From NCBI RefSeq assembly GCF_000008665.1, contig NC_000917.1, positions 1,410,001 to 1,442,000 on the forward strand: DNA of 32,000 nucleotides, written 5' to 3'. The position numbers were made by a program, and so were the translations under genes. Below the pieces are notes generated by a model, which saw only the letters and a program-made list of their open reading frames with translations, ran no database searches and was not told where the DNA came from. Below are positions 1,480 to 3,909 of this stretch, piece by piece (the first letter of the stretch is position 1; each line of letters opens with the position of its first letter). The stretch comes from Archaeoglobus fulgidus DSM 4304 (GTDB taxonomy: Archaea > Halobacteriota > Archaeoglobi > Archaeoglobales > Archaeoglobaceae).

Positions 1480-2516
1480 TGAAAAAGGTGTTGAGTCTGG
1501 TTTTGGTGTTGGTGATGCTGAGCAGCAGCGTTGTGCCAGTGATGGCGGCGAGCGATGCAGAAAAGTGCAGCTGCGGAGCATGCGAAATAACCTTGAAGAG
1601 AGTTGTCGAAGTGGAACTGGCTAAAAACGGAAAAACGATTCTAAACGTCACTGAAATCAATCAAAGCCTTAGCGAGTGGTTTGCTGAGAACTTCGAAGGA
1701 AGCTTCAGTTGCGCAGACGGAAGCTGTCTTGCTTTCGATTACCAGCTGGAAATTAAGGAGCTACTGAACTTGTCGAAAAACAACAAGGAGCTGAAGTTGC
1801 TTGAGATTAAAGTTTACAACGAAACCACCAGCCACGAATTCAAGCTCCTCAGCTACTTTGCACAAACCGCAACTTACAACCTCAGCCTGATTACGAGAAT
1901 AATGGAAATCGACGGTGAGAACTACTTCGTCACAACCATTAACGTTGCTCCCAAGGACGATAAGAAGTTTGCTCCCTTTGCCGACATCGTGGAGATCAAG
2001 TCCAAAACTACTCTGGCAGAGCACTACAGAATCCTCGCCAAAGTGCTTAACGAGATAAGGAAAGGAGACGATACAAGCTGGGTTTGGAACAAAGCCAAGA
2101 ACGAGCTTAACTACCTGAGCAGGGTTGTTGAGATGGAGCTGGAGGAGTATAATGTCGAAGGATATGGATGGACACTGATAATCGATGATGAGTGTACATC
2201 GGCATGTAGCCTAATTTTAGGTATGGCAGGGGCTACAGTTTGTCTAATCATTTGTTCCGTCACAAATGTTGGTGCTTTAGCTTGTGGTGTTATTTGCTCA
2301 GTTGCTTGGGGAGCAGCATCTGGGACTGCATGTAGTTACTGGTGCACTGGAAACCTTGATCCATGTTCTGCAGGATGTGGCGGATTTTGCTCTGGAGTGT
2401 GCTCAGGTGCCTGTAGCGCACTTCTTTCTAGACTTGGACTAACCTCACTGACATACTTCTGTGAAAAGTATGCATGTGCTCCAGCATGCACAGGAGCGTG
2501 TGAGTCGGTATGCTGA
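1476..2516 (+). CDS. Secreted precursor: Sec-type signal peptide, pro-region, and a 116-aa Gly/Ala/Ser/Cys-rich hydrophobic C-terminus (18 Cys, CxxxC ladder); distant halocin-C8-like bacteriocin precursor candidate
   Basis: The track ORF starts at 1464, but ATG 1476 sits 4 nt after GGTGGA and gives MLKKVLSLVLVLVMLSSSVVPVMA|AS. This parallels MQKKVLSLVLVLAVLESIVPVSA of the 4105 gene. The pro-region (nt 1809..2165) is homologous to ORF 3286..3909. The C-terminus reads ...DDECTSACSLILGMAGATVCLIICSV...CSGVCSGACS...CAPACTGACESVC. Confidence 0.8.
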   Translation: MLKKVLSLVLVLVMLSSSVVPVMAASDAEKCSCGACEITLKRVVEVELAKNGKTILNVTEINQSLSEWFAENFEGSFSCADGSCLAFDYQLEIKELLNLSKNNKELKLLEIKVYNETTSHEFKLLSYFAQTATYNLSLITRIMEIDGENYFVTTINVAPKDDKKFAPFADIVEIKSKTTLAEHYRILAKVLNEIRKGDDTSWVWNKAKNELNYLSRVVEMELEEYNVEGYGWTLIIDDECTSACSLILGMAGATVCLIICSVTNVGALACGVICSVAWGAASGTACSYWCTGNLDPCSAGCGGFCSGVCSGACSALLSRLGLTSLTYFCEKYACAPACTGACESVC

Positions 2517-3289
2517 GGAAAAAACTGCTGAAAATTCTGAGTGTGTTAACTCTCTTTATTTTTTTCCAGTATGTAGCAAAATTTGGGATCTTGGAGAGTT
2601 TAGCTCTCTCGATCGTTTACGTTCTGTTGATGGAAATTCTGAGGGACCTCGAAATACTTGCGGAAAAAAGGGTAACATACAAACTGAGTTCTACTGAGGT
2701 GACAAAATACGTTGTTTCAGAAGCCAGTATTTTCGTAACCTCTTTAGCGATTACTTTTTTATTGGGGGGAGAGATTCTGGATGGTCTTGCGTTTGGTTTC
2801 TTTTTCTTGGTGTATCTCCAGTGGTTCTACAACGAAGCCGAAATGGAAAGAGTTTTCAACGATTTCCCAACTTTTCCAAAAATTTTCTTGATATATAGGT
2901 TTGCTATAACGTTATTTGGTTCAACCATTTGCTTTTATCGCTTCGTTTTCGGTGACGTGCTAAAAAGTATAGTAGCAGGCATTCTGACGTTTGCGCTGTT
3001 TTTGTCACAAAGAGCTCTCAATCTGGAATACGTTACAAGCGGAAAGTTTGTTAGGTCAGTTTCAAATCCCCAGTGGTACTTTCGACGAGTCAAGCATTTT
3101 ATCCTCTCCGCTCCCGCCATGGGTGTTGGGGCTACTGCTGGCTACATCGCGGCAAGGTCTGCTGAAATAGAGTCGATAATTGAAACAGTCTGCTGGACTT
3201 TCAGAGCTTTCCTTCTGCTGACCATCGTTGTTGTTTGTATTTTAACGCTGGGTAGCTGGTTGGGACTGAAAGTTCATAAAAAAGCATGA
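2510..3289 (+). CDS. Polytopic membrane protein (multiple hydrophobic segments), translationally coupled to the precursor; immunity/export candidate
   Basis: 259-aa ORF whose ATG 2510 overlaps the precursor stop (ATGCTGA). Its own stop overlaps the next start (ATGA at 3286). Hydrophobic helices run throughout (e.g. ILSVLTLFIFFQYV, FVTSLAITFLLGG, AFLLLTIVVVCILTLGSWLGL). Confidence 0.75.
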   Translation: MLRKKLLKILSVLTLFIFFQYVAKFGILESLALSIVYVLLMEILRDLEILAEKRVTYKLSSTEVTKYVVSEASIFVTSLAITFLLGGEILDGLAFGFFFLVYLQWFYNEAEMERVFNDFPTFPKIFLIYRFAITLFGSTICFYRFVFGDVLKSIVAGILTFALFLSQRALNLEYVTSGKFVRSVSNPQWYFRRVKHFILSAPAMGVGATAGYIAARSAEIESIIETVCWTFRAFLLLTIVVVCILTLGSWLGLKVHKKA

Positions 3290-3909
3290 TGGGTGGAATT
3301 TTGCTGTTGTGGGGTTTGAAGATGTTTAACAGAACACTCAGCTACAGCTCTTACGTGCTGAGCTACCAAGTTGAGAAGCAGCAGTACAACGTGAGTGTGC
3401 TGACGAGGATTATCTCCGTAAACGGCACCGACCTTTTCATGACAATGGTGAATATAGGTCCAAGGGACAGCAAGGCTCAGCCCGTCGCCGATATAGTGTT
3501 CTTCACTAACAAAACGAATCTGGCGGAGCACTACAGGTTGCTCGGCAAGGTTCTGAACGAGGTAAGGAAGGGTGACGAGACGAGCTGGGTTTGGAACAAG
3601 GCGAAGAACGAGCTTAGCTATTTGAGCAGGGTTGTTGAGAGGGAGATGGGGGAGTATAATGTTGAGGGTTATGCCGCAGCTACAACCATGGATATTGATG
3701 CTTGCGGAGCTTGCAAAGTTCTATTTGAAGTTGCGTGTGCAGTGGGTTGTGGTGTAGGAATGGCTACACTTTGTATACTTGCGGGATTGACAACGGGTGT
3801 GGGTGGGATTGCCTGTGCTGCGATTGCGGCTGCAGTCTGTTGGGCAATTGGAGAATACGGGTGCGATTCCGGTGCAGGATATGTATGCACTCAAATAGGT
3901 TACTGCTAA
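3286..3909 (+). CDS. 5'-truncated paralogue of the 1476..2516 precursor, carrying a 10-cysteine halocin-C8-like C-terminal peptide; no signal peptide ('orphan' cassette)
   Basis: aa 12-129 align with aa ~116-234 of the 350-aa track ORF (LAEHYRLLGKVLNEVRKGDETSWVWNKAKNELSYLSRVVE... vs LAEHYRILAKVLNEIRKGDDTSWVWNKAKNELNYLSRVVE...). Similarity ends after YNVEGY. The C-terminal 72 aa are DIDACGACKVLFEVACAVGCGVGMATLCILAGLTTGVGGIACAAIAAAVCWAIGEYGCDSGAGYVCTQIGYC. Confidence 0.75.
   Translation: MMGGILLLWGLKMFNRTLSYSSYVLSYQVEKQQYNVSVLTRIISVNGTDLFMTMVNIGPRDSKAQPVADIVFFTNKTNLAEHYRLLGKVLNEVRKGDETSWVWNKAKNELSYLSRVVEREMGEYNVEGYAAATTMDIDACGACKVLFEVACAVGCGVGMATLCILAGLTTGVGGIACAAIAAAVCWAIGEYGCDSGAGYVCTQIGYC

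Follow-up and report, generated by a model that had tools for sequence, protein, structure and literature searches.

Known archaeocin and polymorphic-toxin systems

Halocin C8 is an experimentally established lytic archaeocin (Li 2003; Sun 2005; both as cited in bioRxiv 10.64898/2026.07.27.741052), and its precursor ProC8 is cleaved into HalI and HalC8 (Sun et al. 2005, as cited in bioRxiv 10.64898/2026.07.27.741052 and PMC8628083). According to the same preprint, the family was expanded past the haloarchaea by Makarova et al. 2019 (mBio 10:e00715-19), who also described halocin-C8 domains fused to RHS-repeat proteins in Nitrolancea; as far as the preprint conveys them, these fusions already place C8 in a polymorphic-toxin context. 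The current study deals with a stretch of 32,000 nucleotides (nt) from Archaeoglobus fulgidus DSM 4304 (NC_000917.1, positions 1,410,001 to 1,442,000; referred to as the window, from whose first nucleotide all coordinates are counted), and in particular with the gene AF_1568 and the genes directly downstream of it. These probably represent a polymorphic archaeocin locus, in which switchable halocin-type peptide cassettes are accompanied by candidate membrane immunity partners and orphan cassettes provide a reservoir. The locus combines a modular anatomy with natural recombinants, variable orphan numbers, covariation of peptide tails and membrane partners, and strain differences that are concentrated in a homologous core.

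Like ProC8, which is encoded by halC8 of Natrinema sp. AS7092, the Archaeoglobus protein is predicted to be secreted as a precursor, in which a large N-terminal part precedes a small C-terminal peptide that is hydrophobic, heat-stable, and rich in disulfides. With respect to domain content, the orphan gene of the locus (gene B) is a member of the halocin C8 family (TIGR04449, 10 Cys), whereas AF_1568 itself is not. We take the beginning of the orphan tail (DID..C..CK) to resemble the N-terminus of mature HalC8. The Archaeoglobus signal peptide MLKKVLSLVLVLVMLSSSVVPVMA is by inspection of the Sec type (KK, no RR), in contrast to the Tat signal of halocin C8; further differences are the hyperthermophilic, non-halophilic host and the presence of the orphan-cassette layout.

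In bacteria, the switching of cassettes by means of orphan toxin-immunity modules is a well-established property of large contact-dependent toxins. Polymorphic toxin systems reportedly comprise hypervariable toxin tails, co-varying neighbouring immunity genes, and orphan cassettes, and the Rhs orphans of Salmonella are said to fuse to the expressed gene by recombination that deletes the intervening DNA. The Archaeoglobus locus agrees with arrays of contact-dependent inhibition (CDI) and Rhs systems in that 5'-truncated orphans, which keep a conserved upstream piece, follow a full-length gene whose C-terminal module is variable and which is adjoined by a candidate cognate gene. It also has two properties by which polymorphic toxins are recognized, i.e., a conserved, putatively secreted part with unrelated hypervariable C-terminal modules (at least six to eight tail classes), and orphan cassettes with upstream homology and replacement by recombination, as seen in the orphans, in strain DSM 8774, and in mosaic cores. 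A preliminary description of this DNA had invoked the CDI and Rhs layout; the common logic of orphans, recombination, and swapped modules applies here, but membership of the CDI or Rhs families does not. No Pfam match to CDI features (CdiB two-partner secretion, filamentous-haemagglutinin repeats, VENN), Rhs features (RHS/YD repeats, PxxxxDPxGL), or the type VI secretion system was found in the precursor or its neighbours. Unlike CDI and Rhs proteins, the Archaeoglobus precursor is small (346 amino acids [aa]), its cargo would be a diffusible, disulfide-rich, membrane-type peptide instead of a contact-delivered enzyme, and the candidate immunity proteins are integral membrane proteins.

In the pneumococcal blp locus, modular colicins, and S-pyocins, a killing module and its immunity gene are swapped as a unit via a conserved upstream sequence that consists of a short double-glycine leader or of a receptor/translocation domain. 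In Archaeoglobus, by contrast, the conserved piece is the 3' end of a folded pro-domain of ~200 aa, and the spares are headless in-frame fragments. A literature search that did not include Makarova et al. 2019 revealed no mention of AF_1568, of a polymorphic halocin C8 locus in Archaeoglobus, or of halocin orphan cassettes. If our reading is correct, archaeocin diversity arises by the same recombination logic as that of bacterial toxins, and a block of "hypothetical" genes (AF_1568 and its neighbours) would be given a function. The locus further adds several novel classes of peptides rich in Cys, whose stability at about 80 °C is presumed.

Precursor, orphan, and the junction between them

The following elements, all located on the forward strand, make up the locus.

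1403..1475 (+), promoter-like or leader element; TATA-like TTTATAT at 1408, Shine-Dalgarno-like GGTGGATAG ahead of the ATG; putative promoter
1476..2516 (+), full-length precursor AF_1568 with Sec-type signal peptide MLKKVLSLVLVLVMLSSSVVPVMA, beta-rich pro-domain, and tail1 (110 aa, 18 Cys, hydrophobic)
1791..2189 (+), conserved segment of the pro-domain, also present in the orphans (226 bits for positions 1-133 of profile A3 in an hmmsearch of six-frame translations)
2001..2165 (+), core homology patch of the full-length gene (SKTTLAEHYR..EYNVEGY), a recombination hot spot with clustered strain differences and mosaic alleles
2184..2513 (+), tail1, the predicted released peptide, starting at a nearly invariant Asp, the presumed cleavage position
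2510..3289 (+), imm1, a 259-aa membrane protein with ~6 hydrophobic spans; candidate cognate immunity protein for tail1
3286..3909 (+), orphan cassette gene (gene B), a 5'-truncated pro-domain without signal peptide or N-domain, fused to tail2
3508..3672 (+), core homology patch of the orphan, in which differences are concentrated, with identical flanks on both sides
3691..3906 (+), tail2, a true halocin-C8 domain with 10 Cys (TIGR04449 match)
3924..4103 (+), imm2, a 59-aa membrane protein with 2 spans; candidate cognate immunity protein for tail2

AF_1568 corresponds to the open reading frame (ORF) 1464/1476..2516 (100% identical). The listed ORF begins at 1464, but the ATG at 1476, which has GGTGGATAG upstream and agrees with the protein start in DSM 8774, is regarded as the start. 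The signal peptide, the pro-region, and the Cys-rich tail were correctly recognized in the preliminary description, whereas the N-region, taken there as unique, is conserved across the family. In an AlphaFold model based on 26 family sequences, the beta-rich pro-domain of ~200 aa is predicted with high scores (residues ~40-245, predicted local distance difference test of 80-95) as a long antiparallel sheet (strands 43-183), two helices (184-225) corresponding to the conserved core, and a last strand (232-240) with YNVEGYGWTLII; the prediction for the tail of AF_1568 is poor. The last strand is part of the sheet, and the folded pro-domain ends 7 residues past YNVEGY at a nearly invariant Asp (D241, 350-aa numbering), which directly precedes every tail and gives the family the junction motif YNVEG-x-G-x4-D. 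The pro-domain harbours five N-x-S/T sequons and is probably N-glycosylated.

Gene B starts inside the homologous pro-region, aa 8-138 of its frame matching profile positions 1-132. Its BLASTP alignment with gene A (1464..2516) extends over 170 aa, of which 48% are identical, and contains a single gap in the pro-region (E=1e-54), a likeness far beyond chance; the near-identical core LAEHYR..WVWNKAKNEL..YLSRVVE..EYNVEGY was found as previously described. The beginning of gene B (MMGGILLLWGLKMF) has, judged by eye, no charged n-region and a hydrophobic run of just 8 residues, in line with the earlier statement that it lacks a signal peptide. In 30-nt windows up to 2166/3675, the nucleotide identity between the two genes amounts to 0.63, 0.77, 0.83, 0.93, 0.87, and 0.77, and past this point it drops to 0.37 and 0.30, which places a sharp 3' breakpoint at 2165/3672. 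The preliminary description had let both protein and nucleotide similarity stop after YNVEGY. This is correct for the nucleotide breakpoint but not for the protein module, whose boundary lies at nt ~2184/3691, i.e., ~20 nt beyond the breakpoint, since the pro-domain extends to the conserved Asp. The 5' edge of similarity is graded, with ~0.5 nucleotide identity upstream of nt ~2000/3507. Between the two genes of DSM 4304, identity at third codon positions is 0.69 in the core versus 0.36 upstream, and among codons for identical amino acids the same codon was chosen in 63% versus 55% of cases.

The genes are tightly packed, and each precursor gene is followed by a membrane-protein gene, as had been noted before: imm1 overlaps gene A by 7 nt, the ATG of gene B overlaps the stop codon of imm1 (ATGA), and imm2 begins 14 nt past gene B. 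Overlaps or 14-nt gaps are all that separates the five genes between 1476 and 5127. A scan for TATA-like boxes and T-runs alone, which is weak evidence, detected none within 3003-3955; together with the tight packing, this suggests that the orphan immunity genes are co-transcribed. The idea that the orphan is a frameshifted full-length gene was rejected, because the whole space upstream is taken up by imm1, whose ORF is intact and has identical counterparts in other assemblies.

A natural recombinant in a sister strain

A recombinant between the 5' part of AF_1568 and the orphan tail, for which the preliminary description had proposed to search, is present in the cultured sister strain A. fulgidus DSM 8774 (comparison loci and proteins are designated by L and P numbers; DSM 8774 is L001). 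Its protein P0002 consists of the signal peptide, N-domain, and pro-domain of AF_1568, followed by exactly tail2 and then by the 59-aa partner. In blastn comparisons, window 1-2166 matches L001 8526-10691 at 98.8% and window 3510-4178 matches L001 10528-11196 at 97.0%; in DSM 8774 the two segments abut, overlapping over the 164-nt core, a state that is equivalent to a 1507-bp loss between the two cores. The gene order of L001 comprises a DUF6345 gene, a 295-aa gene, one full-length precursor, and the 59-aa gene, and tail1, the 259-aa gene, and the orphan 5' part are all absent within ±10 kb of the locus. Synteny, with SMC/ScpA upstream and a 400-aa gene downstream, is common to DSM 4304, DSM 8774, and the metagenome contig L003.

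The distribution of strain differences is uneven. Between DSM 4304 and DSM 8774 there are 0 differences in 1476-2017, in tail2 (234 nt), and in imm2 (177 nt), all 25 differences of 1476-2166 are located within 2018-2162, and 18 are found in the orphan core 3508..3672. The comparison with L003 gave the same picture, with 0 differences across 2166-3510 (tail1, imm1, and the orphan 5' part; 1345 nt) and 24 differences in each core of 162-165 nt, and the blastn match between the window and L003 stops exactly at 3673. The five aligned cores from the window, L003, and DSM 8774 are mosaic: the full-length core of the window is in one segment identical to part of the L003 orphan core, and the orphan core of the window matches the full-length cores of L003 and DSM 8774. 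These mosaic alleles and the accumulation of differences in the core between identical flanks indicate repeated exchange in the core. A single core allele precedes tail1 in L003 and tail2 in DSM 8774, the switch lying inside the YNVEGY codons; on its 3' side the junction is accordingly discrete and not gradual, as originally proposed.

Orphan arrays in related genomes

The comparison of related genomes suggested by the preliminary description yielded both swapped C-terminal modules and different orphan numbers. At the syntenic locus, the latter range from 0 in DSM 8774 and 1 in DSM 4304 to 3 in L003, L021, and L022. The arrangement of DSM 4304 with one orphan recurs in many independent metagenome assemblies (L023, L042-L049), and that of L003 recurs in L021 and L022 and partly in L015, L019, and L026; due to this recurrence, the arrangements are not regarded as assembly artefacts. 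L003 carries a full-length gene with tail1, the identical 259-aa gene, and the same orphan 5' part with a third tail, followed by a 333-aa protein with 9 spans, a tail fragment, a 359-aa protein with 8 spans, a shorter orphan with the C8-class tail4, and an 85-aa protein with 2 spans. According to six-frame searches and ORF maps, the partial copies in orphans start at profile positions 1, 8, 34, 42, 49, 66, 73, 77, 106, and 109.

Cassettes that are orphans in one genome are primary in another. Tail1 with an imm1 homologue is primary in DSM 4304 and an orphan in L006 and L020; the same applies to tail3 with a 9-10-span partner (primary in L005; orphan in L003, L007, and L015), tail4 with the 85-aa partner (primary in L013; orphan in L003, L015, L019, and L026), and tail5 with a 7-9-span partner (primary in L006; orphan in L026). 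The A. fulgidus-type N-terminal part (>97% identical) occurs with three tails (tail1, tail2, and that of P0003). Exchange also affects the orphans themselves, as the 5' part MMGGILLLWGL.. is joined to tail2 in DSM 4304 and to tail3 in L003, and MAERVSNPAS.. to tail1 in L020 and to tail5 in L026. Movement of tail1, imm1, and the orphan 5' part, a block that is 100% identical between DSM 4304 and L003, as a unit via a circular intermediate was also considered; this idea was dropped as not general, because the genes that precede the orphan 5' part MAERVSNPAS.. are not the same in L020 and L026.

Independent full-length genes in related genomes, which the preliminary description had named as evidence against its proposal, were encountered in Thermococcus cleftensis. 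Since both members of the T. cleftensis pair are full-length with signal peptides, the orphan layout is a feature of the Archaeoglobus lineage and not of the whole family, and the tandem may represent the ancestral, orphan-free layout. In detail, L004 7995-13629 (T. cleftensis CP003651) comprises one tail1-like precursor, followed by a 7-span protein, and one tail3-like, frameshifted precursor, followed by several membrane proteins with 5-6 spans, one of which is likewise frameshifted.

The T. cleftensis tandem with its frameshifted second gene is what would be expected if full-length paralogues decayed passively by 5' deletions, leaving orphans as pseudogenes without any reservoir function and recombinants as by-products of repeats. 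Fragmented or frameshifted orphan-like pieces (a 59-aa fragment in L003, pieces in L007 and L025, a fragment in L008) and the two cores inside DSM 4304, which are not freshly homogenized, would also fit such a decay. We nevertheless regard this explanation as unlikely, given orphans whose intact tails and partner genes are kept at 0 differences across strains, orphan cassettes that occur as primary genes in other genomes, and a DSM 8774 genome sequence in which the orphan tail resides on a full-length 5' part and would thus be expressed. The concentration of strain differences in the cores is moreover expected under repeated exchange. Decayed orphans are also found in bacterial CDI and Rhs arrays, and the fragments are therefore no argument against a reservoir of switchable cassettes.

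Diversity of the tails

The halocin-C8 assignment of gene B is based on a TIGR04449 match of 60 bits (cut-off 24) that covers the full 69-position model; tail2 alone reached 63.7 bits. Tail1 of AF_1568 has neither a halocin-C8 match nor an NCBIfam family. A comparison of the tail1-class with the C8-class profile resulted in an hhalign probability of 17%; thus, tail1 and tail2 are not detectably related, as stated before for the two C-termini. C8 domains were recognized in tail2, tail4, and the P0011 type, with P0026 as a borderline case, but not in tails 1, 3, 5, 6, 7, and others. Altogether, one pro-domain carries at least six to eight hypervariable, unrelated tail classes, of which at least five, including tail1, are outside halocin-C8, and many family members with such tails escape current halocin models. 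The seven tail classes examined have a grand average of hydropathy of 0.8-1.25, and the Cys numbers of six complete tails are even (18, 10, 14, 12, 12, and 12), both of which fit secreted, fully disulfide-bonded hydrophobic peptides.

When the tail2 peptide was used alone to search for homologues, no match was obtained, probably owing to low-complexity words, and tblastn of tail2 against plasmids gave none either. A scan of viral contigs revealed no relatives, and the cassettes are thus not evidently virus-borne. The small contig L020 carries a three-cassette array between IS1-family transposase fragments (HTH_Tnp_1, DDE_Tnp_IS1) at 313-612 and 6331-7030, which hints that arrays can be located on mobile DNA.

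Membrane-protein partners

Among the clustered loci, wherever a downstream-protein cluster recurs in two or more cassettes, it accompanies only one tail class, and for at least six tail classes a separate class of downstream membrane protein is retained. Homologues of imm1 follow tail1-class peptides in L003, L006, L007, L019, L020, and T. cleftensis; with 25-29% identity of the partner between Archaeoglobus and Thermococcus, the tie persists over deep divergence. Tail class and downstream membrane-protein class clearly covary, with the exception of L011 and L012. A comparison of the tail1 regions of DSM 4304 (window 2184-3286) and L020 (2041-3626) showed that the two parts of the cassette differ in their history, as 8/330 nt differ in tail1 (7 synonymous, 1 not) versus 152/777 nt in imm1 (63 synonymous and 58 non-synonymous codons), which points to a further breakpoint between peptide and partner or to conversion of the tail alone.

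The partners have lengths of 56 to 390 aa and contain 1-10 hydrophobic spans; imm1 (259 aa) has no Pfam or NCBIfam match, and none of the partners has a functional match. This unusual heterogeneity, together with the same lack of functional matches for tails 1, 3, 5, 6, and 7, would be compatible with a modular, recombining locus whose tails are surface, adhesion, signalling, or self-recognition peptides and whose partners are receptors, anchors, or maturation or export factors. Distant relatives in which the pro-domain is combined with rhodanese or with additional large C-terminal domains point in the same direction. Such a role for the tails as a whole is improbable, however, when it is considered that tail2, tail4, and others are true halocin-C8 domains and that halocin C8 is a demonstrated lytic archaeocin. 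Hypervariable tails with co-varying adjacent small membrane proteins and orphan cassettes are moreover the signature of toxin-immunity conflicts.

A model for cassette switching

We infer secretion, cleavage, toxicity, and immunity, as well as the silence of orphan peptides, from the architecture of the locus and its likeness to halocin C8. In an archaeocin locus of this kind, the AF_1568 precursor would be exported by the Sec pathway, its pro-domain carrying a C-terminal hydrophobic peptide with an even number of Cys and keeping it soluble until cleavage. The peptide would be released near the conserved h-h-Asp junction, mirroring the cleavage of ProC8 into HalI and halocin C8, and the adjacent membrane protein, which is specific to the peptide class, would most likely confer immunity on the producer. 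A spare cassette consists of a pro-domain fragment without promoter or signal peptide, a different peptide, and its own membrane partner. Homologous recombination would use the final ~165 nt that encode the pro-domain, a stretch common to all cassettes, as its substrate: if the expressed gene crossed over with an orphan, the intervening tail and partner would be deleted and the orphan peptide would be provided with a promoter and a signal peptide. The state of DSM 8774 would be the outcome of such a crossover, and incoming cassettes could likewise replace a resident tail. The orphan partner genes would probably protect against neighbours that produce the respective peptide.

Several observations weigh against this model. 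Halocin C8 immunity resides in the N-terminal part of its precursor (HalI), whereas in Archaeoglobus it would probably be conferred by a separate membrane protein, the pro-domain having no PF22862 match, and tail1 matches no known antimicrobial family. L011 and L012 combine related tails with unrelated downstream proteins, and much of the linkage between tails and partners is among near-identical copies. Several comparison loci are metagenome assemblies, and T. cleftensis carries two full-length genes in tandem and no orphan. The orphan is perhaps not silent, since its ORF is intact and begins with an ATG overlapping the stop codon of the preceding gene, so that translation in the cytoplasm may take place. 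The two cores of DSM 4304 differ at 16/43 synonymous-capable codons, with longest identical runs of ~18 nt, which indicates that recombination within this strain is not recent and that protein constraint accounts for some of the high identity of the cores. The evidence for recombination is accordingly seen in the comparison between genomes rather than in the cores within DSM 4304. Killing, immunity, cleavage, and expression, finally, are predictions from sequence.

A farther-reaching proposal, toward which we remain tentative and slightly on the doubtful side, is that hyperthermophilic archaea maintain a complete polymorphic-toxin economy, in which one Sec-exported carrier serves at least six unrelated peptide toxins, its 3' end acts as a dedicated recombination site, and orphans with membrane immunity genes form a silent arsenal and shield. 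If this were true, DSM 4304 (tail1; imm1 and imm2) should kill DSM 8774 (tail2; only imm2 at the locus), but not the reverse. The hypotheses of toxicity, immunity, and orphan protection are directly testable, since both strains are cultured and differ by exactly the predicted switch.

Distribution of the pro-domain

The pro-domain profile detected 114 family clusters among 1.84 billion representative proteins, as well as 14 loci in species-representative genomes and 21 in metagenomes. All named genome loci belong to Archaeoglobi, and T. cleftensis and Ignisphaera are among the protein matches. The pro-domain matches no Pfam family; for PF22862 (Hac8_like_N, the HalI model), neither gene of the window has a match at E<=0.1 and 0/58 distant relatives match at E<=0.01, and NF040679 matches the tail part alone and not the N-terminal part. 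A Foldseek search of the PDB with the pro-domain model returned insignificant NTF2-like matches only (best E=0.037), and a PDB sequence search returned nothing meaningful. Among the 58 distant relatives scanned, which include P0073, P0084, and P0090, 19 carry a rhodanese domain, which is N-terminal to the pro-domain in the three inspected, and some also have large extra C-terminal domains beyond the Cys-rich segment. One distant relative showed a weak match to TIGR04450 (Gpos_C8_like; E=0.002), and none was seen among ten distant relatives rescanned.

Neighbouring variation in the island

The cassette genes are followed by a further variable cargo of the same island.

4105..5127 (+), secreted Zn-phospholipase-C-like protein (Pfam PF00882, E=2.3e-13)

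Alignment, blastn self-hits, and a TATA scan located a near-identical copy of the leader element 1403..1475 at 5875-5948. More generally, a TATA-containing element of ~70 bp is repeated upstream of several secreted-protein genes, i.e., at 1403-1478, 5875-5948, and 4094-4149 of the window, at 8203-8269, 9934-10004, and 12363-12432 of L001, and at 8132-8200, 14666-14774, and 15970-16039 of L003. The precursor and the phospholipase-C-like gene have the ribosome-binding site and the signal-peptide coding sequence (M[LQ]KKVLSLVLVL) in common. In L019, a full-length precursor is located behind the same MYHFVGGSMLKKVLSLVLVL leader that precedes a phospholipase remnant in L003, and the leader may therefore be a second recombination site. 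In such a second layer, the common promoter and signal-peptide leader may allow the swapping of whole cargo genes, e.g., of the precursor and the phospholipase-C-like protein.

The phospholipase-C-like gene is intact in DSM 4304 and many metagenome contigs and has an internal deletion of ~528 bp (window 4179-4706) in DSM 8774 and L003. The gene after it (window 5124-5755) is split by frameshifts into ORFs of 63 aa and 135 aa, and its counterpart is intact (209 aa) in DSM 8774, L003, and the DSM 4304-like contigs L023 and L042-L047; the split is due to a lesion confined to this strain or to an error of sequencing in the old reference. The remaining window contains ordinary chromosomal genes (form III RuBisCO, Nre, a radical-SAM enzyme, and trp genes), and no tRNA genes were found in it. 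L003, L019, and L026 encode an additional secreted protein of 219 aa past the last orphan. Directly upstream of the precursor, a DUF6345 protein and a secreted protein of 295 aa are encoded in DSM 4304 (3-1398) and DSM 8774 (L001 8240-9923); in L003 both genes are absent and only a minus-strand gene for a secreted protein of 123 aa is found at this place, which represents a presence/absence polymorphism of the island.

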